From the IMG/VR virus record IMGVR_UViG_2609459839_000004: a DNA stretch of 18,695 bases. One strand, given 5' to 3'. Origin of the DNA: a virus (taxonomy: Duplodnaviria; Heunggongvirae; Uroviricota; Caudoviricetes). Positions 1 through 7,666 of this stretch are shown here, piece after piece (the first letter of the stretch is position 1; every line of letters begins with the position of its first letter). Both the position numbers and the translations under genes were made by a program. The notes under the pieces are model-generated. The model made no database searches. It worked only from the letters and a program-made list of their open reading frames with translations, and was not told the origin of the DNA.

Positions 1-522
1 ATGTCAAAGCCAAAATACCCTTTTGAAAAGCGCCTTGAAGTCGTGAATCACTACTTCACAACTGATGATGGTTACAGGATCATCTCGGCACGTTTTGGTG
101 TCCCCCGAACCCAGGTCAGGACATGGGTTGCCCTCTATGAAAAACATGGAGAAAAAGGTTTAATTCCCAAACCTAAAGGCGTTAGTGCTGATCCAGAGTT
201 GCGTATTAAGGTCGTGAAAGCTGTGATCGAGCAGCACATGTCCCTTAATCAGGCTGCTGCTCACTTTATGCTTGCTGGTAGTGGTTCTGTAGCCAGGTGG
301 CTGAAGGTCTATGAAGAGCGCGGAGAAGCTGGTTTACGCGCGCTCAAGATTGGCACCAAAAGAAACATTGCAATATCAGTTGATCCAGAAAAAGCGGCAT
401 CAGCATTGGAGCTGTCAAAAGACCGACGCATTGAGGATCTTGAAAGGCAAGTTCGATTTCTTGAAACGCGGCTTATGTATCTAAAAAAGCTGAAAGCCTT
501 AGCTCATCCCACGAAAAAGTGA
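1..522 (+). CDS. insJ: IS150 transposase OrfA (InsJ), HTH DNA-binding component
   Basis: 173-aa ORF starting MSKPKYPFEKRLEVVNHYF..., recognised as IS150 OrfA; ends just after the slippery heptamer. Confidence 0.9.
   Translation: MSKPKYPFEKRLEVVNHYFTTDDGYRIISARFGVPRTQVRTWVALYEKHGEKGLIPKPKGVSADPELRIKVVKAVIEQHMSLNQAAAHFMLAGSGSVARWLKVYEERGEAGLRALKIGTKRNIAISVDPEKAASALELSKDRRIEDLERQVRFLETRLMYLKKLKALAHPTKK
483..489 (+). other. Programmed -1 ribosomal frameshift site (slippery heptamer A_AAA_AAG)
   Basis: A AAA AAG is in the insJ zero frame (codons cta aaa aag); the -1 frame is open from here into insK. IS3-family elements make OrfAB this way. Confidence 0.7.
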
Positions 523-1370
523 AAGTACTCAACGAGCTAAGGCAGTTTTATCCTCTTGATGAGCTTCTCAGGGCTGCGGAGATACCGCGCAGTACGTTTT
601 ATTATCATCTAAAGGCTCTCAGCAAGCCTGACAAGTATGCGGACGTTAAAAAGCGTATTAGTGAGATTTATCACGAGAATAGAGGCCGATACGGATACCG
701 TAGGGTAACGCTGTCTCTTCATCGAGAAGGGAAACAGATTAACCATAAAGCTGTTCAGCGCCTGATGGGAACCCTCTCACTTAAAGCAGCGATTAAGGTC
801 AAGCGATACCGCTCTTACAGAGGAGAGGTAGGGCAAACCGCCCCTAATGTTCTCCAAAGAGATTTCAAGGCTACGCGGCCAAACGAGAAGTGGGTTACCG
901 ATGTTACTGAATTTGCAGTCAATGGGCGCAAGCTGTATTTGTCTCCAGTAATAGATCTCTTCAACAACGAAGTTATTTCTTACAGCCTTTCGGAAAGACC
1001 AGTGATGAACATGGTTGAGAATATGCTCGATCAGGCATTCAAAAAGCTTAATCCTCACGAGCATCCTGTTCTGCACTCTGACCAGGGATGGCAGTATCGT
1101 ATGAGAAGATATCAAAATATCCTTAAAGAACATGGTATTAAACAAAGCATGTCCAGAAAAGGCAATTGTCTGGATAATGCTGTGGTGGAGTGTTTCTTTG
1201 GAACCTTAAAGTCGGAGTGTTTTTATCTTGATGAGTTCAGTAATATAAGCGAACTGAAGGATGCTGTTACGGAATATATTGAATACTACAACAGCAGAAG
1301 AATTAGCCTGAAATTAAAAGGTCTGACTCCAATTGAATATCGGAATCAGACCTATATGCCTCGTGTTTAA
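519..1370 (+). CDS. insK: IS150 transposase OrfB (InsK), DDE catalytic domain; expressed mainly as an InsJK fusion
   Basis: 283-aa ORF in the -1 frame relative to insJ; the track start at 519 is GTG; integrase-core-like segments ([15 protein letters not shown]) present. Confidence 0.88.
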
Positions 1371-1412
1371 CTGTCCAACTTTTTGGGGTCAGTACAAAGT
1401 GAGGCCAGTCTT

Positions 1413-1619
1413 ATGTCTCGACAACTGAAGATTAGCCTCTTACGTGCCGAAAGGCAAGGAGAAGCAGGCTATGAAGCAGCAAAAGGCGATGTTAATCGCC
1501 CTGATCGTCATCTGTTTAACCGTCATAGTGACGGCACTGGTAACGAGGAAAGACCTCTGCGAGGTACGAATCCGAACCGGCCAGACGGAGGTCGCTGTCT
1601 TCACAGCTTACGAACCTGA
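1413..1619 (+). CDS. mok-like reading frame overlapping hok
   Basis: ATG at 1413 preceded by GAGG at 1401-1404; frame overlaps almost all of hok in another frame and stops just before the hok stop, as mok does in hok/sok loci. The track ORF start at 1383 is TTG inside the IS150 end. Confidence 0.4.
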   Translation: MSRQLKISLLRAERQGEAGYEAAKGDVNRPDRHLFNRHSDGTGNEERPLRGTNPNRPDGGRCLHSLRT

Positions 1620-1626
1620 GGAGTAA
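1471..1626 (+). CDS. hokD: Hok-family type I membrane toxin (HokD/RelF-like), 51 aa
   Basis: Translation MKQQKAMLIALIVICLTVIVTALVTRKDLCEVRIRTGQTEVAVFTAYEPEE has one TM helix and the conserved C-terminal Hok motif; AAGGAG upstream of the ATG. Matches HokD as recalled. Confidence 0.82.
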   Translation: MKQQKAMLIALIVICLTVIVTALVTRKDLCEVRIRTGQTEVAVFTAYEPEE

Positions 1627-1696
1627 GAGACCAGGTGAGGGAGAAATCCCTCGCCACCTCTGATGAGTCAGGCATCCTCAACGCACCCGCACTTAA

Positions 1697-1720
1697 CCCG
1701 CTTCGGCGGGTTTTGTTTTT
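1697..1720 (+). terminator. Intrinsic terminator at the 3' end of the hok transcript
   Basis: cccgc-ttcg-gcggg hairpin followed by ttttgttttt. Confidence 0.6.
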
Positions 1721-1793
1721 TCCTGGCATTCTGGTTTACAATTCGCACGCCAGCCTGAACAACTGGCACCTGCTGCGCCAGCAGAGACAACCG

Positions 1794-2066
1794 ATGGCGC
1801 ACAAAACCAAATTTCACAATTCTGATACCGACCTTGCCATCCGGCATGGGCGGCGTTCACACGCATTTAAATATGACTGGTATCAGCATGACCCCTGCAC
1901 TGAAGAACAGGCCGAATGGCTGATTCAGAACTACCGCAGACGTGGGTATGAGTTTAAGAAAGCCCTCAGCCTCGACTTCCGACACTGGATCATCTCAGTC
2001 AGACTGCCTTACTCTGAACGCCCACCGCGTCCGTCCCGCACATTCCAGCAACGGATCTGGAGGTAA
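1794..2066 (+). CDS. Hypothetical small protein (~90 aa) between hok and the DUF968 gene
   Basis: ATG at 1794 lies downstream of the hok terminator; its stop (taa 2064-2066) abuts the GTG start of the next gene. Start choice is uncertain; the upstream part of track ORF 1635..2066 overlaps the hok 3' structure. Confidence 0.35.
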   Translation: MAHKTKFHNSDTDLAIRHGRRSHAFKYDWYQHDPCTEEQAEWLIQNYRRRGYEFKKALSLDFRHWIISVRLPYSERPPRPSRTFQQRIWR

Positions 2067-2067
2067 C

Positions 2068-3126
2068 GTGCGGGTATTGCTTCGACCTGTTCCGGTACCG
2101 GAACTCGGGCTGGTGGTCCTTAAGCCTGGTCGTGAATCCATGCAGGTATTTCATAACCCTCGAGTGCTGGTGGAGCCGGAACCGAAAAGCATGCGCGGTC
2201 TGCCGTGCGGAGTTGTTCCTGCCATTCGCCAGCCGCTGGCGGAAGACAAATCATTGCTGCCATTTTTCAGCAATGAGCAGGTAATTCGTGCTGCCGGTGG
2301 CACTGGTGCACTGTCTGACTGGCTCCTGCGTCATGTTAAATCCTGCCAGTGGCCTCATAGTGACTACCATCACAGTGAAATCGTCATACATCGTTATGGT
2401 ACCGGAGCGATGGTGTTGTGCTGGCACTGCGACAACCAGCTGCGTGACCAGACATCCGAATCACTCGAGCAACTTGCTCATCAAAACCTGTCAGCATGGA
2501 TGATTAACGTCATACGCAATGCAATGAATGGTACGCAAGAGCGGGAATTATCGCTGGCTGAGTTATCCTGGTGGGCGGTCTGCAATCAGGTGGCGGACGC
2601 GCTACCGGAAGCGGTATTACGTCGTTCGCTGGGGTTGCGTGCGGAAAAAATCCGCTCAATGTACCGTGAAAGCGACATCGTACCGGGAGAGCAGACCGCC
2701 ACCAGCATACTGAAGCAGCGCACAAAAAATATTGCGCTGCCACTTCACGTCCACCAGCAACAGCCCCCACTCCAGGAAAAGACGTTAGTAAGCATCGCCG
2801 TTGATCCGGAGTCACCGGCTCAGTATCTCCAGCGCCAGAAACCACAACGGGAAGAGATGCCTGTATACACGCGCTGGGTAAAAACGCAGAAATGCATGAC
2901 GTGCGGTAATCAGGCAGATGATCCGCATCACATCATTGGTCATGGCCTGGGAGGTATGGGAACAAAGGCTGATGATTTGTTTGTTATTCCGCTGTGCCGT
3001 AAATGTCATAACGAACTGCACGCCGGGGTAAAAGATTTTGAAGAAAAACACGGCAGCCAGCTGTTGTTGCTGATTCGTTTTTTAATGCACGCGAGAAATT
3101 CGGGTGTCCTGAAGTGGAAAGCATGA
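2068..3126 (+). CDS. DUF968-family phage protein (YdfU-like) with C-terminal HNH-like Cys/His motif
   Basis: C-terminus CMTCGNQADDPHHIIGHGLGG...PLCRKCHNELH is an HNH-type motif; GTG at 2068 follows GGAGG at 2058-2062; alternative ATG start at 2140. This gene sits just upstream of Q in Qin-type prophages. Confidence 0.65.
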   Translation: MRVLLRPVPVPELGLVVLKPGRESMQVFHNPRVLVEPEPKSMRGLPCGVVPAIRQPLAEDKSLLPFFSNEQVIRAAGGTGALSDWLLRHVKSCQWPHSDYHHSEIVIHRYGTGAMVLCWHCDNQLRDQTSESLEQLAHQNLSAWMINVIRNAMNGTQERELSLAELSWWAVCNQVADALPEAVLRRSLGLRAEKIRSMYRESDIVPGEQTATSILKQRTKNIALPLHVHQQQPPLQEKTLVSIAVDPESPAQYLQRQKPQREEMPVYTRWVKTQKCMTCGNQADDPHHIIGHGLGGMGTKADDLFVIPLCRKCHNELHAGVKDFEEKHGSQLLLLIRFLMHARNSGVLKWKA

Positions 3127-3492
3127 ATGACTGAACGCATAGAATTTGTTTTGCCTTACCCGCCAACGGTGAACACTTACTGGCGACGTCGTGGCAGCAC
3201 ATATTTTGTATCAAAAGCCGGTGAGCGTTATCGCCGTGATGTGGCGCTTATTGTTCGCCAGCAGCGGCTGAAATTAAACCTGTCCGGAAGGCTGGCGATA
3301 AAGATTATTGCAGAGCCACCGGATAAGCGCCGCCGCGACCTGGACAATATCCTGAAGGCACCACTGGATGCGCTGACGCATGCCGGACTACTTATAGACG
3401 ACGAGCAGTTTGATGAAATCAATATTGTGCGCGGTCAGCTCGTTCCTGGTGGGCGGCTGGGGATAAAAATCACAGAACTGGAGTGCGCATGA
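3127..3492 (+). CDS. rusA: RusA-family Holliday junction resolvase
   Basis: 121 aa with LPYPPTVNTYWRRRG and RRRDLDNILKAPLDAL motifs as in RusA; typical nin-region position. Confidence 0.85.
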   Translation: MTERIEFVLPYPPTVNTYWRRRGSTYFVSKAGERYRRDVALIVRQQRLKLNLSGRLAIKIIAEPPDKRRRDLDNILKAPLDALTHAGLLIDDEQFDEINIVRGQLVPGGRLGIKITELECA

Positions 3493-4178
3493 ATAACCAG
3501 TATTTACAGTTTGTGCGTGAGCAGCTCATTATCGCCACCGCTGATTTGAGTGGGGCAACAAAAGGTCAGCTTGAAGCCTGGCAAGAGAATGCCATGTTCG
3601 ATACAGGGCGTTACAGGCGTAAAAAAATCCGGTACCGCGATGAAGTGACTGGAAAAATGATAACGCGGGATAATCCACCAATCCCGGGAAAGCAATCGCT
3701 GGCGAAAGGTTCATCAATTGCCCTGGTCAGTCCGGTTGAGTTTTCGACATCATCATGGCGACGCGCCGTTCTGTCTCTTGAAGAGCATCAGAAGGCGTGG
3801 GTGCTGTGGGTATACAGTGAAAATCCGAGTTGGGATTATCAGGTGGTCATTGCGAAATGGGCGTGGGATAAGTTTCAGGTGCATTTTGGCACCAGAAAAA
3901 TTACAGGGAAAACGCTTGAGCGTCTGAAGAAATTAATCTGGCTGGCGGCGCAGGATGTCAGGGGGAGGATTACTGGGCGTGACGTCTACCAGCGACAGGA
4001 ACTTGCCAGACTGTGTGGAGTTAAGCCTGACAACTGGAGCCATAATTATGCGAACTACTGGCGTGAGATGTGCGACATTTTTAAGAAACTCGATACAGAA
4101 TCCTTGATTTGCACCGTGAAAATGAGATCGCAACAAAAAGCGACCTTTTCACGACGAGATATTGCAAAAGTCAATTAA
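3489..4178 (+). CDS. Late-gene antiterminator Q (QuuQ-like family)
   Basis: ~229-aa ORF directly upstream of a promoter-plus-terminator unit and the cargo/lysis region; ATGA overlap with the rusA stop. Family assignment is by synteny and recollection, not a verified alignment. Confidence 0.6.
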   Translation: MNNQYLQFVREQLIIATADLSGATKGQLEAWQENAMFDTGRYRRKKIRYRDEVTGKMITRDNPPIPGKQSLAKGSSIALVSPVEFSTSSWRRAVLSLEEHQKAWVLWVYSENPSWDYQVVIAKWAWDKFQVHFGTRKITGKTLERLKKLIWLAAQDVRGRITGRDVYQRQELARLCGVKPDNWSHNYANYWREMCDIFKKLDTESLICTVKMRSQQKATFSRRDIAKVN

Positions 4179-4191
4179 ATCGCATACATTT
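4163..4191 (+). promoter_or_regulatory. Candidate late promoter pR' (sigma70 -35/-10) overlapping the 3' end of Q
   Basis: TTGCAA (4163-4168), 17-bp spacer, TACATT (4186-4191). Confidence 0.4.
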
Positions 4192-4226
4192 TATGTAAAT
4201 GTGATATTTTGCCGTATAGTGTGTAA

Positions 4227-4249
4227 ACCCGCTTAAATGCGGGTTTTTT
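4227..4249 (+). terminator. tR'-like intrinsic terminator downstream of Q
   Basis: acccgc-ttaaat-gcgggt hairpin followed by a T run, ~35 nt downstream of the predicted start site. Confidence 0.6.
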
Positions 4250-4322
4250 GCTTAACTCTGTGGACCTTTTTATCTGTAGTTGTAAGATATGGATATTCTT
4301 ACAATTTAGGTCGGTGAGCTTA

Positions 4323-5087
4323 ATGGAAGAACAGCACGGTAATTACTTTATAAAACGAATTCAGTTGATTGGAAGAGGTGCATTTGGCTTTGTTGAACAC
4401 GTTAAGGTTTACAACCTCAACAAGGGTGAATGTGGGGATTATGCTAGAAAGGTTTTAGCCCCCGAAAAACCAGAGCTTTTGGCGCAAATAGAGCAGTTTA
4501 GAAGGCGTTTTAAAAGGGAGGTCGTGTATCAATCACATTGCGTACATAGCAATATTGTTCCTATTTATTTGTGCGATTTGTTTGCCGAGAATCCATGGTT
4601 CATTATGGATAAAGCAGAATGTGATCTTGAGCACGAAATAACGAACAACCTTCTTACAACAGATCAAAAAATTTCAATAGTGAAAATGGTATTAGATGGT
4701 GTAGCTCACATCCATGCGAAAGGCTATTTACACAGAGATATAAAACCATTTAATGTCTTGCGATTTAGCGACGGAACATACAAGGTGTCTGATTTTGGTC
4801 TGGTAAAAGATACAAATCCCGAAGGGGATACCACTAAATTGACCGAGATCGGTACCCGTATGGGAAGTACAAGATATATGGCTCCCGAGATTTTATATAA
4901 TGCCGAGTATTCAGTTAAGACTGATGTTTATGCGGTGGGGCGGTTAATTGAGGACTTAAATTTAGATGATAAAAAAATAAAGCCTATCATAGCGAAGTGT
5001 ACCAGGATGGATAAAGATGATAGATATCAGACAATAGATGATGTGGCGTTTGATTTTGTGCATTCTTTTTTAAGGAGTGAGTCATGA
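4323..5087 (+). CDS. Eukaryotic-like (Hanks-type) Ser/Thr protein kinase, minimal catalytic domain
   Basis: Gly-rich loop GRGAFGFV, putative catalytic Lys in YARKV, catalytic loop HRDIKPFN, DFG, YMAPE, DVYAVG; AT-rich codon usage unlike the flanking phage genes. Confidence 0.85.
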   Translation: MEEQHGNYFIKRIQLIGRGAFGFVEHVKVYNLNKGECGDYARKVLAPEKPELLAQIEQFRRRFKREVVYQSHCVHSNIVPIYLCDLFAENPWFIMDKAECDLEHEITNNLLTTDQKISIVKMVLDGVAHIHAKGYLHRDIKPFNVLRFSDGTYKVSDFGLVKDTNPEGDTTKLTEIGTRMGSTRYMAPEILYNAEYSVKTDVYAVGRLIEDLNLDDKKIKPIIAKCTRMDKDDRYQTIDDVAFDFVHSFLRSES

Positions 5088-5827
5088 TTCAGCTGATAGC
5101 GACTTCATCATTCTCGTATCCAAAAGAACCAGGTAGGGTCAACGAAGATTCATTGCTTCCTCCCAAAATTGTAGGGGATGGCATCTTATTTGCCGTAGCT
5201 GATGGTGTAGGTTCATACACTGGTGCCAGTCAGGCTTCATCAATGGCAATTGCTGAGCTTTCAGCATTGACAAGCTTATCTTTTGACACAGTTCCGGATG
5301 TATTTGATGAAGTTAAGCGAAAGGTTATGTCGTTAGCTGATGTTAATGATGAGTTCGATAAAGCTGCTACTACACTTACGTTTTGTTATGTTTGTGATAG
5401 CGGAATTATTATTGGTCATATTGGTGATTGTCGTTTGTATTGCATTGGAGAGAAGAAAGCATACCAATTGACGAAGGACGATACCAGGCATCAGATGCTA
5501 ATTGATCAGAATATTTTTAAACCCAGAGATTTGAAGGATAAACCGGGCAAAAATATCTTAACGACGGCTATAGCCTCAAATGTTGATATGGAATACGACT
5601 GTGATTTTATCACATGGAAAGATTTACCTAGTATTAACGGGGTATATCATCTGTGTATCATGTCTGATGGGGTTCATAACGTTTGGGAAAAACGCCCCAG
5701 ATTTACATCAAATACGATGAGTAATAGTCAGAAGTTTTCTAATGGCATTTTGCGTCGTATAGAGAGAGCCGGACCTGATGATGACTTTTCTTTAGTAAGT
5801 ATAATGGTGCGTGTGACGTCAGATTAG
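5084..5827 (+). CDS. PP2C-family (PPM) Ser/Thr protein phosphatase
   Basis: Motifs NEDS, AVADGVGSY, GHIGDCRLY, LTKDDT, MSDGV in PP2C order; AAGGAG SD inside the kinase 3' end; ATGA start/stop overlap with the kinase. Confidence 0.8.
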   Translation: MIQLIATSSFSYPKEPGRVNEDSLLPPKIVGDGILFAVADGVGSYTGASQASSMAIAELSALTSLSFDTVPDVFDEVKRKVMSLADVNDEFDKAATTLTFCYVCDSGIIIGHIGDCRLYCIGEKKAYQLTKDDTRHQMLIDQNIFKPRDLKDKPGKNILTTAIASNVDMEYDCDFITWKDLPSINGVYHLCIMSDGVHNVWEKRPRFTSNTMSNSQKFSNGILRRIERAGPDDDFSLVSIMVRVTSD

Positions 5828-5899
5828 TTGTATAAACTCAGTAGGGAATGCTAATTTCACATACAACATAGTTAAAGAAAACTTAATTTTAATGTAAAA

Positions 5900-5924
5900 A
5901 GGCTGCCCTCAGGCGGTCTTTTTA
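5900..5924 (+). terminator. Intrinsic terminator after the kinase/phosphatase operon
   Basis: ggctgcc-ctca-ggcggtc hairpin (with G-U pairs) followed by ttttt. Confidence 0.4.
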
Positions 5925-6046
5925 TGCTCGAAAATTGATGCAGTACGTTAAACGCGCTGGTGGTTGCGAATACCGGTCTTTCAGCTTGCTGGCTTTTTAG
6001 ACAAGAGTTATTGGTATGTCACGTTAACCAGAAAAGGGAAAAAGAC

Positions 6047-6244
6047 ATGCTAAAACAGCAGGATATGACCGAAACCGCCAGAGTGGTGTTTAATGAATTA
6101 AGCGTCACCGAACCGGCGACCGTCGGGGAAATTGCGCAGAATACTTACCTTTCACGCGAACGCTGCCAGTTAATACTGACTCAGCTTGTTATGGCGGGTC
6201 TGGCAGATTATCAGTTCGGTTGTTACAGACGCCTTCCTCAGTGA
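6047..6244 (+). CDS. Small winged-helix/HTH-like protein (65 aa) upstream of the methyltransferase
   Basis: ATG at 6047 after a purine-rich stretch; segment ATVGEIAQNTYLSRERCQLILTQLVMAGL resembles an HTH recognition unit. Confidence 0.4.
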   Translation: MLKQQDMTETARVVFNELSVTEPATVGEIAQNTYLSRERCQLILTQLVMAGLADYQFGCYRRLPQ

Positions 6245-6394
6245 AGGTTTTTTAATTTGTGGTAATGGGCGGCTGGTGGGTGTTAGCGGCACCTGCCAGC
6301 CATCTGCTCATGCGTTGGGGTCACAAGCAAACCTCAGGCCCATCTGCTTTGCGCAAAAGCGGTATGAGCCTATCAGAGAAGTGCTTATTGATCT

Positions 6395-7444
6395 ATGGCC
6401 AATACTGTAAAAATATCCAGTTGTGAGTTAATCAACGCTGATTGCCTGGAATTTATCCAGACCTTACCGGAAAATTCTGTCGATCTGATAGTCACAGACC
6501 CGCCATACTTTAAAGTGAAGCCCGAGGGCTGGGATAACCAGTGGGAGGGCGACGATGATTACCTGAAATGGCTGGACCAGTGTCTGGCGCAGTTCTGGCG
6601 GGTACTGAAGCCTGCCGGAAGTCTTTACCTGTTCTGTGGTCATCGCCTGGCATCTGACACCGAAATCATGATGCGTGAGCGCTTTAATGTGCTGAACCAC
6701 ATTATCTGGGCGAAGCCGTCCGGACGCTGGAACGGGTGCAATAAGGAAAGTCTGCGGGCGTATTTTCCGGCAACAGAGCGCATTCTGTTTGCAGAACATT
6801 ATCAGGGACCGTATCGCCCGAAAGATGATGGCTATGTGGAGCAGGGGCGCGAGCTAAAACAGCACGTCATGGCCCCGCTGATTTCTTACTTTCGTGATGC
6901 GCGTAAATCACTGGGAATAACGTCAAAACAGATAGCGGAAGCCACCGGAAAGAAAAACATGGCTTCGCACTGGTTTGGTACCAGTCAGTGGCAGTTACCG
7001 AACGAGGGTGATTACAACAAATTGCAGGCGTTGTTTGCGCGTGTTGCGGCAGAAAAACATCAGCGCGGGGAACTGGAAAAGCCACACCACCAGCTGGTCA
7101 GCACATACAGTGAGCTGAACCGGCAGTATACGGAACTGCTGAGTGAATATAAAAATTTGCGGCGGTATTTCGGTGTGACGGCGCAGGTTCCGTACACCGA
7201 TGTCTGGACGCATAAACCGGTGCAGCACTATCCAGGGAAACATCCGTGCGAAAAACCGGCAGAAATGCTGCAGCAGATAATCAGCGCAAGTAGTCGTCCT
7301 GGTGATCTGGTTGCGGATTTTTTCATGGGGTCGGGTTCAACGGTAAAAGCGGCGATGGCACTGGGGCGTCGTGCGATTGGTGTTGAGCTGGAGACCGGAC
7401 GTTTTGAGCAGACAGTCAGGGAAGTTCAGGATTTAATCGTTTGA
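6395..7444 (+). CDS. Orphan DNA methyltransferase, beta-class amino-MTase (N6-adenine or N4-cytosine)
   Basis: DPPY catalytic motif near the N-terminus and SAM-binding FxGxG (DFFMGSGST) near the C-terminus, the beta-class order; no adjacent restriction endonuclease gene seen. Confidence 0.85.
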   Translation: MANTVKISSCELINADCLEFIQTLPENSVDLIVTDPPYFKVKPEGWDNQWEGDDDYLKWLDQCLAQFWRVLKPAGSLYLFCGHRLASDTEIMMRERFNVLNHIIWAKPSGRWNGCNKESLRAYFPATERILFAEHYQGPYRPKDDGYVEQGRELKQHVMAPLISYFRDARKSLGITSKQIAEATGKKNMASHWFGTSQWQLPNEGDYNKLQALFARVAAEKHQRGELEKPHHQLVSTYSELNRQYTELLSEYKNLRRYFGVTAQVPYTDVWTHKPVQHYPGKHPCEKPAEMLQQIISASSRPGDLVADFFMGSGSTVKAAMALGRRAIGVELETGRFEQTVREVQDLIV

Positions 7445-7455
7445 AACGGATGAGA

Positions 7456-7484
7456 TTGCAGAATTAATTACGCACCATTATTAT
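7456..7484 (+). promoter_or_regulatory. Candidate sigma70 promoter for the tRNA cluster
   Basis: TTGCAG (7456-7461), 17-bp spacer, TATTAT (7479-7484), ~10 nt upstream of the first tRNA 5' end. Confidence 0.45.
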
Positions 7485-7493
7485 TCTGCTCCC

Positions 7494-7569
7494 GGCCCTT
7501 TAGCTCAGTGGTGAGAGCGAGCGACTCATAATCGCCAGGTCGCTGGTTCAAATCCAGCAAGGGCCACCA
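7494..7569 (+). tRNA. tRNA with CAU anticodon, most likely tRNA-Ile2 (lysidine-type, reads AUA)
   Basis: Cloverleaf: acceptor GGCCCTT/AAGGGCC, D-arm GCTC-AGTGGTGA-GAGC, anticodon loop CTCATAA, T-arm GCTGG-TTCAAAT-CCAGC, encoded CCA. Resembles ileX more than elongator Met as recalled; CAU alone cannot separate Ile2 from Met. Confidence 0.8.
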
Positions 7570-7576
7570 TCACATA

Positions 7577-7653
7577 CCGCCATTAGCTCATCAGGAAAGA
7601 GCGCCAGCTTTCGAAGCTGGTTGCGCGGAGTTCGGGTCCCCGAAGGCGGTCCA
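7577..7653 (+). tRNA. tRNA-Arg(UCG)-like, non-canonical; possibly degenerate
   Basis: Anticodon stem-loop CCAGC-TTTCGAA-GCTGG gives anticodon UCG; D-arm GCTC...GAGC; acceptor starts with C and has one mismatch, T-stem has one mismatch, T-loop TTCGGGT lacks the usual A58. Boundaries approximate. Confidence 0.5.
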
Positions 7654-7666
7654 TTATCTGTATCCT

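Follow-up and report, generated by a model that had tools for sequence, protein, structure and literature searches.

The window analyzed here (the whole 18,695-nucleotide stretch of the Caudoviricetes record IMGVR_UViG_2609459839_000004) opens inside an IS150 copy whose right end lies just upstream of a hok toxin gene, which raises the question of what the element interrupted, why it sits at this position, and what became of the toxin-antitoxin module. The first part has a direct answer: the IS150 copy lies within sok and within the mRNA leader of a hok toxin gene that belongs to a prophage. The fuller reading, to which a probability of roughly 0.75 was assigned, is that a full-length K-12-type IS150 transposed into a complete hok/sok locus, landed at its habitual site and broke the regulation of the module, and that the recurrence of such insertions stems from target preference. 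The event is a fresh instance of a known phenomenon rather than a novel system. Coordinates of all features are collected in Table 1.

Table 1. Features at the IS150-hok junction, with positions in the window, strand, and the evidence for each
Feature	Position	Strand	Basis
IS150	1-1396	+	Element positions 48-1443 of 1443 bp; left inverted repeat and first 47 bp outside the window
insJ (orfA), helix-turn-helix protein	1-522	+	ORF list; Pfam HTH_28, HTH_29; K-12 annotation
A AAA AAG programmed -1 frameshift site, insJ-insK	483-489	+	Motif located; RefSeq "programmed frameshift" in identical elements
insK (orfB), DDE transposase core	519-1370	+	Pfam rve (integrase core), rve_2, rve_3, HTH_21
Chimeric Sok-IS150 transcript, ~110 nt, predicted, 3' end approximate	1311-1422	-	Promoter, fold, terminator-like hairpin
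IS150-internal 15-bp hairpin, then TTTTAATTT; predicted terminator for transcripts from the right	1319-1353	-	Terminator-like site; chimeric RNA fold
IS150 right inverted repeat (IRR), ends TCAGTACA at 1396	1371-1396	+	Exact 26-nt match in all IS150 copies examined
AAG, right copy of 3-bp target-site duplication	1397-1399	+	AAG on both sides in 214-4; intact site ...AAATCGAAGTGAGGCC
sok 5' 26 nt, antisense to mok Shine-Dalgarno box and ATG	1397-1422	-	Homology to annotated K-12 sokC, sokB, sokE
TGAGGCC, mok Shine-Dalgarno box (GAGG 1401-1404)	1400-1406	+	K-12 hok alignment; Rfam alignment; IS150 flank motifs
mok-like leader ORF, 68 aa, overlaps hok out of frame	1413-1619	+	ORF list; position homologous to K-12 mokC, mokB
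Putative sok promoter, -35 TTGCCT (1457-1452), 17-nt spacer, -10 TAATCT (1434-1429)	1429-1457	-	Positional homology
dcb (GCCTC), predicted to pair with mok Shine-Dalgarno box in open, Sok-accessible hairpin	1435-1439	+	Read-through RNA fold
hok (HokD-type), 51 aa	1471-1626	+	PF01848 HOK_GEF, 82.9 bits (cut-off 22); hokD in identical relatives
fbi (CCTCAACGCACCC), complementary to tac (GGGTGCTTGAGG)	1676-1688	+	STEC388 intact mRNA fold
hok mRNA intrinsic terminator, stem-loop 1695-1712 and T-run	1695-1722	+	Terminator scan

The element was compared with the defining features of IS150 (IS3 family; ~1443 bp, terminal inverted repeats TGTACTG...CAGTACA, and a 3-4 bp target-site duplication). Its identification as IS150 in the initial annotation held, as the copy aligns with the K-12 element without a mismatch and is likewise identical to the copies in 214-4 and 675SK2. 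Overlapping insJ and insK (helix-turn-helix and DDE/rve, respectively) are joined by the A AAA AAG -1 frameshift site; the right terminal repeat is exact and the left one lies outside the window. The element is oriented as hok is and ends 3 nt 5' of the mok Shine-Dalgarno box, and the distances first given from its right end, 17 bp to the mok-like ATG (1413) and 75 bp to hok (1471), were confirmed from the coordinates.

The toxin has the size and N-terminal hydrophobic segment of the Hok/Gef family (~50 aa), with the PF01848 match covering residues 6-47, and RefSeq names the identical 51-aa sequence HokD. Upstream of it lies a mok reading frame with its own Shine-Dalgarno box at 1401-1404, an ATG at 1413, and an open frame to 1619; its resemblance to the Pfam family DUF5431 is weak (20.5 bits, under the cut-off of 27). 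The role of the mok Shine-Dalgarno box and the dcb element are defined in PMC9841398, as are the roles of tac, fbi, and ucb. On the opposite strand, the heptamer TGAGGCC at 1400-1406 doubles as the 5' arm of the stem in the Sok terminator, and it fits the IS150 target motif YGRGGCY. Two other Rfam matches were set aside: isrK (RF01394) on the hok 3' UTR, at 24 bits versus a cut-off of 50 a chance or distant resemblance, and mir-15, which is noise.

The insertion was located by comparison with IS-free relatives; the best relative among 5,426 complete E. coli genomes lacks the element. The prophages of E. coli E275a and STEC388 otherwise match the window and show the empty site with a complete hok/sok module, which supports a simple insertion. 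Identity between E275a and the window prophage is 99.6-100% across 17 kb. The module sits in the nin region of a lambdoid prophage, between the replication genes and Q, and when intact its 5' side is occupied in STEC388 by a gene with a DUF551 domain and in E275a by hypothetical genes. Strain 214-4, whose right junction is identical, reads AAG-IS150-AAG around a 1443-bp element, with the hok promoter and 5' leader (tac, ucb) found to the left. If the insertion was simple, the window would be preceded by the 47-bp left end of IS150, itself preceded by ...GCCCCACCCGACTATAAATCGAAG / ...GAAAAGCCCCACCCGACTATAAATCGAAG, with the hok promoter upstream. Only a single genome among the 5,426 carries the identical junction, and its surroundings differ from those of the window. 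The comparison with an uninterrupted locus that the initial annotation proposed supplied both the insertion point (E275a, STEC388) and the AAG duplication (214-4), but the uninterrupted locus is not relBE-hokD. Separately, the window prophage is decaying, its packaging and tail genes also being gone.

Comparison with the intact relatives bears out the proposal that the insertion displaced the hok promoter. This promoter (TTGCGG-17-TAGAAT in the relatives) now lies beyond IS150, together with the first ~75 nt of the leader of the hok mRNA; the element intervenes at 1396/1397 and separates hok from its promoter, tac, the metastable hairpin, and ucb (the anti-Shine-Dalgarno element) by 1.44 kb. 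In the predicted minimum free energy fold of the intact STEC388 mRNA, the 5' end pairs with the fbi segment (z-score -6.3), and the tac/fbi and ucb/Shine-Dalgarno pairings are both present; in the window fbi is retained beside hok and its tac partner, now beyond IS150, is no longer adjacent. The Rfam model of the hok leader and sok (RF01794) scores 122.1 bits over its full length in an intact relative versus 45.4 bits in the window, below the gathering score of 59 and with genuine alignment confined to the 3' half of the model.

The fate of the antitoxin is mixed. The initial annotation held that sok had probably been displaced along with the promoter, a view that an intact sok promoter and antisense RNA on the minus strand within 1397-1500 would contradict. 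The contradiction is partial: homology places in that interval, still beside hok, the sok promoter together with nt 1-26 of the RNA, which include its target-recognition tail, whereas the 3' ~33 nt with the terminator hairpin have moved away, so sok is split and a complete ~60-nt Sok (promoter, 5' tail, terminator hairpin) is no longer encoded. The putative promoter scored under the threshold of the consensus scan, its -10 TAATCT being weak by consensus; its counterparts upstream of annotated K-12 genes are TTGCCG-17-TAAGAT (sokB) and TTGCCT-17-TACCAT (sokE). K-12 sokC, sokB, and sokE each begin with G, 5-7 nt past the -10 (the sokC value depends on the hexamer chosen), and the sok start corresponds to mok nt +9 or +11 in sokC and sokB (mokE is unannotated). 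Intact Sok folds into a 5' tail and a terminator hairpin. The predicted chimeric RNA keeps the 5' tail and gains the IS150 hairpin with its U-run, the transcripts predicted to enter that hairpin including those from the sok promoter.

From this arrangement the following course is proposed. IS150 would have inserted just ahead of the mok Shine-Dalgarno box, duplicating 3 bp. Post-segregational killing requires a hok mRNA that is compact, inert, and activated slowly; such an mRNA could then no longer form, and for this reason the addiction function would be lost. Any hok transcript would arise by read-through, whether transcription began at the displaced hok promoter, within IS150, or with the early genes of the prophage, and its default fold would be the open mok-Shine-Dalgarno/dcb hairpin (1401-1405 paired with 1435-1439 in the predicted read-through RNA). 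The retained sok promoter would yield a chimeric antisense RNA of ~110 nt, fully complementary to the mok Shine-Dalgarno box and ATG and stopping at the IS150 hairpin with its U-run; because it would cover both elements and end at a hairpin, it could hold residual hok translation low. We infer the silencing of hok, as well as the chimeric Sok RNA and its termination, from sequence. The displaced hok promoter is still directed through IS150 toward hok, and terminator prediction on the + strand across IS150 and up to hok returned none; together with the shared orientation and LTEE RNA-seq, this indicates that hok may still be transcribed. The phenotype of sokE::IS150 differs from that of sokE+ (PMC11551753), which argues that IS150-split sok alleles are not simply null.

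An alternative that we consider unlikely is that the insertion captured the toxin: IS150-derived transcription would drive a mok-hok unit lacking ucb and tac, with low constitutive Hok checked only by the sok promoter, and the allele would be active or conditionally toxic. The layout would permit this, as hok lies immediately past the IS150 3' end in a suitable orientation, the insK-to-hok interval holds no predicted + strand terminator, and the mok-Shine-Dalgarno/dcb hairpin is open in the predicted read-through fold; the sokE::IS150 phenotype described above would also fit. The initial annotation likewise suggested an outward-reading IS promoter, but a sigma-70-like consensus scan of the + strand over 1100-1470 (IS150 end to hok) found no match of ≥ 9/12, neither for such a promoter nor for one between the element and hok. 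Published evidence on outward transcription is divided: in RNA-seq of evolved LTEE lines a modest rise in transcription was seen downstream of new IS150 copies in 12 of 55 regions (PMC11101190, which also cites an outward-facing promoter at IS150), whereas a reporter assay detected no promoter activity in the 150-bp ends of IS150 (PMC12095673). At four other hok loci the configuration is moreover stable, with carriers numbering from hundreds to thousands of genomes, which is hard to square with appreciable toxin production.

That the junction is an artefact of assembly or recombination, such as a contig joined via a repeated IS150 copy, is highly improbable. The window does open inside the element with a single junction visible, and the window prophage shows three clean internal deletions relative to E275a, a possible hint of assembly problems; however, the same right junction recurs in 214-4, an independent complete genome, along with a matching left junction and the 3-bp duplication, and the junction falls at the canonical IS150 site of other hok loci. 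Almost no credence is given to the view that IS150 interrupted nothing functional, having landed beside an orphan, truncated hokD of the K-12 relBE-hokD type without its own sok or mok. The protein is indeed HokD-type, and identity to K-12 hokD reaches ~98% over the coding region and 3' UTR, but this homology begins only at ~1457. The mok ATG, Shine-Dalgarno box, dcb, and sok promoter are present both in the window and in the IS-free relatives, where the full leader is found (RF01794, 122 bits) with no relE upstream. The window likewise has no relE, so that hok does not directly follow that gene as it does in relBE-hokD; the relBE-hokD reading entertained in the initial annotation is ruled out by the intact relatives with their full hok/sok module.

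The preferred reading, insertion at a habitual site, draws on the recurrence of IS150 at hok loci. Junctions in flanking sequences were detected using blastn and an nhmmer profile of the leader, which replaced ungapped identity and a Hok protein HMM after these under-detected hok sites (15/64). IS150 was found at the same site and in the same orientation at hokA in 876, hokB in 574, hokE in 498, and hokC in ~272 of the 5,426 complete E. coli genomes, counts that are inflated by clonal descent and give only rough percentages. Target-site duplications are ACC at hokC and CCC at hokE, and at least 73 further junctions at the exact hok site come from other enterobacterial genera and metagenomes. 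The HokD-type prophage locus with IS150 is rare, occurring once among ~3,519 genomes with a full-length match, plus the window. Nearly all IS150-hok junctions have one orientation. As rough shares, ~37% of all the IS150 right ends across complete E. coli genomes lie in hok leaders, as do, among the matches listed from species-representative genomes and metagenomes, about three quarters of IS150-group right-end junctions. Earlier work describes sokA::IS150 in K-12 and sokE::IS150, with a phenotype, in more than 400 isolates (PMC11551753), recurrent IS150 insertions adjoining hokC, hokE, and mokB in experimental evolution, where recurrence at one coordinate across independent lines shows a mutational hotspot (PMC5419217), and hok/sok loci as insertion hotspots for mobile elements (bioRxiv 10.1101/527788). 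An open literature search for IS150 with hokB/sokB found nothing.

The mok Shine-Dalgarno box probably acts as a landing pad for IS150, because non-hok IS150 sites share the motif NNN-YGRGGC: among the matches listed, it occurs exactly in 8 of 27 distinct flanks versus ~0.03 expected by chance. A preference of IS150 for NNN-YGRGGCY, combined with a conserved mok Shine-Dalgarno box that offers this motif in every hok locus, is the favored explanation of the recurrent insertion. No relevant target consensus for IS150 emerged from a literature search; the Durrant preprint gives HOMER motifs for 55 elements in its supplement. A broader proposal, which we hold tentatively and at somewhat less than even odds, is that IS150 and its close relatives recognize the asymmetric NNN-YGRGGCY beside the right inverted repeat, that every hok/sok module is a built-in landing pad, and that the element is possibly adapted to hok/sok as a safe harbor. 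The need to pair with both ucb and dcb constrains the mok Shine-Dalgarno box, and since the box also supplies the motif, each hok/sok module would, if this proposal is true, present such a site. In the favored orientation, transcription from the hok promoter would then enter the transposase genes and that from the strong sok promoter would meet the IS150 hairpin terminator, and IS150 could be adapted to a harbor in which the toxin is left repressed.

Coincidence of the target motif with the mok Shine-Dalgarno box would offer a sequence-level explanation for hok/sok hotspots, a puzzle repeatedly noted in E. coli genomics and experimental evolution, and for the frequency of "inactivated" loci. 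The window locus would represent one more decay route for a prophage addiction or defense module. For annotation, hokA-E or hokD genes adjoining IS150 usually represent split sok/leader alleles, which may keep a truncated, IS-terminated antitoxin; this could account for the sokE::IS150 phenotype.

Known IS150-hok alleles place the window among close counterparts. The initial annotation cited IS-disrupted hok loci in K-12 as a precedent, and RefSeq does annotate IS150 between mokA and sokA; the K-12 sokA::IS150 allele goes back to Pedersen & Gerdes 1999, as cited in PMC11551753. In K-12 MG1655 sokA::IS150/hokA, as in the window, IS150 separates the hok gene from the 3' portion of sok, tac, ucb, and the hok promoter lie beyond it, and the upstream junction falls within 1-2 nt of the homologous position (after ...AAATCAAAGT). 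The K-12 element is inverted, however, with no target duplication and ~43 bp missing (the mok Shine-Dalgarno box, ATG, and part of the sok promoter), whereas the insertion in the window is simple, has the common orientation, and leaves mok and the sok promoter intact, a form also present at hokA in 876 genomes. The sokE::IS150 allele (XL1-Blue and more than 400 natural isolates; PMC11551753) and IS150 at hokC, hokB, and hokA share with the window the homologous site, a 3-bp duplication directly 5' of YGRGGC, as well as the orientation and an identical IS150; these are chromosomal core-genome paralogues, whereas the window carries a prophage-borne HokD-type locus. Laboratory evolution of E. coli B (hokC, hokE, mokB; PMC5419217 and the LTEE literature) involves the same IS and the same target class, although those events were seen in real time at chromosomal loci; the comparison is at the level of the element and its target class.

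Two IS-free systems are also close to the interrupted module. To the right of IS150 the window resembles hok/sok (parB) of plasmid R1, with a mok Shine-Dalgarno box and ATG, dcb, sok promoter, hok, fbi, and terminator, and the IS-free relatives, like R1, have the full element set with tac/fbi pairing. In the window, unlike in R1, Sok lacks its own terminator and a distance of 1.44 kb separates hok from tac, ucb, and its promoter. The regulated switch from full-length to truncated mRNA cannot work as it does in R1. The relBE-hokD (relF) locus of the K-12 Qin prophage has nearly the same Hok and 3' UTR in a similar lambdoid setting, upstream of DUF968/ydfU and Q, but it follows relE and has no mok start, sok promoter, or leader.

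Other IS3-family elements, IS1397 and ISKpn1, target REP sequences by palindrome or motif. IS150, whose motif NNN-YGRGGCY was deduced solely from natural junctions, resembles them in its strong preference for a short conserved motif within a hairpin-forming repeat, and differs in that it targets not a REP sequence but an element with a function in RNA regulation at a toxin-antitoxin locus.

Window positions 1-1396 matched positions 48-1443 of the 1443-bp K-12 IS150 element with zero mismatches, and also showed zero mismatches to the IS150 copies of two other genomes. Since the first base of the window is the insJ start codon, the left repeat and left flank were not visible. The observation in the initial annotation was confirmed, and its distances from IS150 to mok (17 bp) and to hok (75 bp) were both exact. 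At 1635-1716, the 3′ UTR hairpin of hok together with fbi and the terminator gave a weak Rfam hit to isrK (RF01394), scoring 24 bits where the cut-off is 50; the resemblance is probably no more than a shared prophage 3′-UTR/terminator architecture.

Features at the right end of IS150 and in the adjoining hok/sok region (window coordinates)
Feature	Position	Strand	Remarks
insJ	1-522	+	IS150
A AAA AAG frameshift site	483-489	+	IS150
insK	519-1370	+	IS150
Right inverted repeat, 26 nt	ends 1396	+	IS150
AAG	1397-1399	+	adjoins IS150 right end
TGAGGCC, holds GAGG Shine-Dalgarno	1400-1406	+	mok SD box
mok-like ORF, ATG at 1413	1413-1619	+	
sok start, G (complement of 1422)	1422	-	homology to K-12 sok genes
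sok -10 TAATCT	1434-1429	-	homology to K-12 sok genes
sok -35 TTGCCT	1457-1452	-	homology to K-12 sok genes
hok, 51 aa	1471-1626	+	PF01848, 82.9 bits
fbi, 13-nt segment	1676-1688	+	pairs with tac in fold of intact mRNA
Intrinsic terminator	1695-1722	+	

The empty site was present in two genomes, E. coli STEC388 (100% identity across window 1397-1760) and E. coli E275a, whose prophage matched window 1397-18695 in five collinear blocks at 99.6-100% identity. In both, AAGTGAGGCC is preceded by ...GGGTGCTTGAGGCTATCTGTCTCAGGCATGAACACCAAAAGGCAGATAGAGAAAAGCCCCACCCGACTATAAATCG, with TTGCGG-17-TAGAAT farther upstream. Against Rfam RF01794, a model of the hok leader on the hok-sense strand (gathering score 59), the intact relative's stretch scored 122.1 bits across the full model, and the window scored only 45.4 bits, with just the model's 3′ half on real hok sequence. 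In the predicted fold of the intact 393-nt mRNA (z-score -6.3), the 5′ end (tac) pairs with fbi and ucb (GCCCCAC) pairs with the mok Shine-Dalgarno (SD; GUGAGGC), the same closed architecture as described for R1 hok (PMC9841398). Because of the relatives' full RF01794 match and this closed fold, the locus is identified by sequence as a complete hok/sok module. It lies within the nin region of a lambdoid prophage, and a DUF968 gene, rusA, and Q are downstream. The HokD-type prophage module is widespread, with a full-length match in 3,519 genomes. A relBE-hokD locus, the alternative offered initially, was rejected: similarity to K-12 hokD begins only at ~1457, in K-12 directly after relE, and the relatives hold the full module.

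Relative to E275a, the window also lacks an IS2 and three internal blocks: ~4.9 kb running from terminase to protease, 5.7 kb of tail genes, and 6.7 kb with J, lom, and tail fibre, at 12807/12808, 16441/16442, and 18161/18162, each junction having an overlap of ~2 nt. Either the prophage has decayed heavily or the assembly is at fault. Directly downstream of the Q antiterminator gene is a gene pair (4248-5827) that encodes a Ser/Thr protein kinase of eukaryote-like type (Pfam Pkinase) together with a PP2C phosphatase. In the segments 7494-7743 and 8033-8368, the window has a cluster of three tRNAs, one with a CAT anticodon (tRNA-Ile in the annotation of relatives), one Arg-TCG, and one Arg-TCT, followed by a minus-strand iraM-like gene, whereas in STEC388 the cluster precedes stx2; no Shiga toxin genes were found in the window.

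In strain 214-4, where both IS ends are visible, ...AAATCGAAG is followed by IS150 (1443 bp) and then AAGTGAGGCC, with a 3-bp target-site duplication (TSD), AAG, at both ends and the same right junction as the window. Comparison with uninterrupted loci, as proposed in the initial annotation, placed the insertion point between ucb and the mok SD; the hok promoter, tac, metastable hairpin, and ucb lie left of the IS, and the mok SD and ATG, dcb, hok, fbi, and terminator lie right of it. On the opposite strand, the insertion point falls within sok. The annotated K-12 sokC, sokB, and sokE RNAs are 57-60 nt long and start with a G located 5-7 nt past a -10 hexamer, itself ~17 nt from a TTGNCN -35; this spacing is 6-7 nt in sokB, sokE, and the window, the sokC -10 being ambiguous. 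Where the mok ORF is annotated (sokC and sokB), the 5′ end of the RNA lies at mok nt +9 or +11. Because the homologous -35, -10, and start G all lie right of the IS, hok by homology still has beside it the sok promoter together with the 26 nt of Sok that are antisense to the mok SD and ATG. The displaced part is the last ~33 nt, including the terminator hairpin 3′ arm and U-tail; in K-12, a 'sokA' pseudogene fragment of 35 nt, annotated on the far side of IS150, matches this part. The proposed displacement of native promoter and sok thus held for the hok promoter, but sok was split rather than removed: within 1397-1500 the sok promoter is present, and of the RNA only the first 26 nt.

With the promoter, tac, and ucb now 1.44 kb from mok, the compact hok mRNA would no longer be producible, and fbi is without a nearby partner. 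The stable inert mRNA reservoir and delayed activation on which post-segregational killing depends should be lost. Transcription of hok may still occur. IS150 has the same orientation as hok, the 214-4 hok promoter (TTGTCA-17-TAGAAT) is directed into the IS, and no plus-strand terminator was predicted between that promoter and hok. In the predicted fold of a read-through RNA, the mok SD is paired to dcb, which is the open, translatable, Sok-accessible form. An outward IS promoter driving the toxin, also suggested initially, is unproven: modest transcription past the IS150 3′ end was seen in 12 of 55 cases by LTEE RNA-seq (PMC11101190), but 150-bp IS150 ends were without promoter activity in a reporter study (PMC12095673), and our sequence scan found no good sigma-70 match for one.

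The kept sok promoter would yield a chimeric antisense RNA. Intact Sok folds as tail, hairpin, and UUUUCU. Since the unpaired 5′ tail of the chimera (GUCGAGACAUAAGACUG) is the same as the native one, and sok-strand transcription next meets a 15-bp IS150 hairpin (1353-1319) and then UUUUAAUUU, an antitoxin of ~110 nt that retains its native recognition end is plausible from the predicted folds. Phenotypes of sokE::IS150 and sokE+ differ (PMC11551753), which shows that such IS150 alleles are not inert; that study does not tell the direction of action.

Of 5,426 complete E. coli genomes, the junction query recovered ~272 in which IS150 occupies the homologous position of hokC, similarly oriented (...CATCAACC, IS, ACCCGAGGCC; TSD ACC), and 1 with the HokD-type junction. 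Dedicated junction queries found those of hokA, hokB, and hokE in 876, 574, and 498 genomes, respectively (for hokE, TSD CCC before TGGGGC). Set against 5,956 IS150 right ends in total, these counts put ~37% of all IS150 copies at the hok-leader site, a rough share, as the genome counts are inflated by clonal descent. The hokE insertion of strain S171-1 has CCC on its left flank and AAC on its right, unlike the perfect CCC/CCC duplication of EC96; the mismatch stems either from a later mutation or from an independent event at this site.

A wider scan queried species-representative genomes and metagenomes with the exact 26-nt right repeat. The former yielded 21 junctions (15 distinct flanks) that match this site and orientation exactly. 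Their sources were Shigella, Enterobacter, Kluyvera, Lelliottia, Superficieibacter, '[Erwinia] mediterraneensis', and others, and in several the element was an IS150 relative with only the terminal ~40 nt in common. Among the first 120 metagenome matches listed, at least 52 further junctions were at the exact site and at least 8 elsewhere in hok leaders. Among the matches listed, 80 of 141 IS150-group junctions were in hok leaders, 25 were of the K-12 hokA inverted type, and 36 were elsewhere. The exact repeat also occurred at Alistipes/Rikenellaceae MAG contig ends (7 named loci and ~20 more), where the adjoining ~130 nt were at most ~70% identical to IS150 and the flanks were AT-rich, often with a terminator-like hairpin (AAACGGAGGTGGCTAATTAACTTTTTAGTCACCTCCGTT). 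These ends apparently belong to a multicopy Bacteroidales IS150-group relative whose terminus is perfectly conserved. One metagenome flank (AGG TGTACTGCACCCATTTTGTTGGACG) held an IS150 right end, 3 bp, and then a left end, an arrangement that an IS3-family minicircle junction or a head-to-tail tandem would produce.

The TSDs vary (AAG, ACC, CCC), and the bases after them are always YGRGGC. Among the matches listed, exact NNN-YGRGGC occurred at the same offset in 8 of 27 distinct non-hok flanks (chance expectation, ~0.03), and most others were near matches, e.g., CTGGGCC, TAAGGCT, CAGGGCG, and CCGGGCC. Two of the insertions elsewhere in hok leaders also fit, one at the tac TGAGGC and one on the opposite strand at AGAGGC, the dcb complement. 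From natural junctions alone, we infer that IS150 prefers NNN-YGRGGCY adjoining its right end, the mok SD box probably being the source of the motif in every hok locus. No published IS150 target motif was found in the open literature, and hok/sok loci have been described as mobile-element hotspots (bioRxiv 10.1101/527788). Part of the site bias could come from selection for tolerated insertions, and a motif-driven, orientation-locked association of IS150 with hok/sok is held tentatively, at a probability of roughly 0.4.

The K-12 hokA copy of IS150 differs from the common hokA::IS150 allele in being inverted, in having no TSD, and in lacking ~43 bp, comprising the mok SD, the ATG, and a portion of the sok promoter, that the common allele keeps. 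In the K-12 hokA locus extract (regions 1100-1160 and 2560-2620 compared), the hok-side junction, followed by TACTCG, coincides with the junction that an IS150-like element forms in a hok locus of Buttiauxella. This suggests a second preferred site at dcb (AGAGGC, other strand) or an IS-mediated adjacent deletion. The K-12 sokA::IS150 is published (PMC11551753, citing Pedersen & Gerdes 1999), as is sokE::IS150 in >400 isolates (PMC11551753), and in evolution experiments IS150 has repeatedly inserted de novo next to hokC, hokE, and mokB (PMC5419217). The HokD-type module is almost never hit, with one genome of the complete-genome set plus the window. The window is a new locus for an event that is already known.
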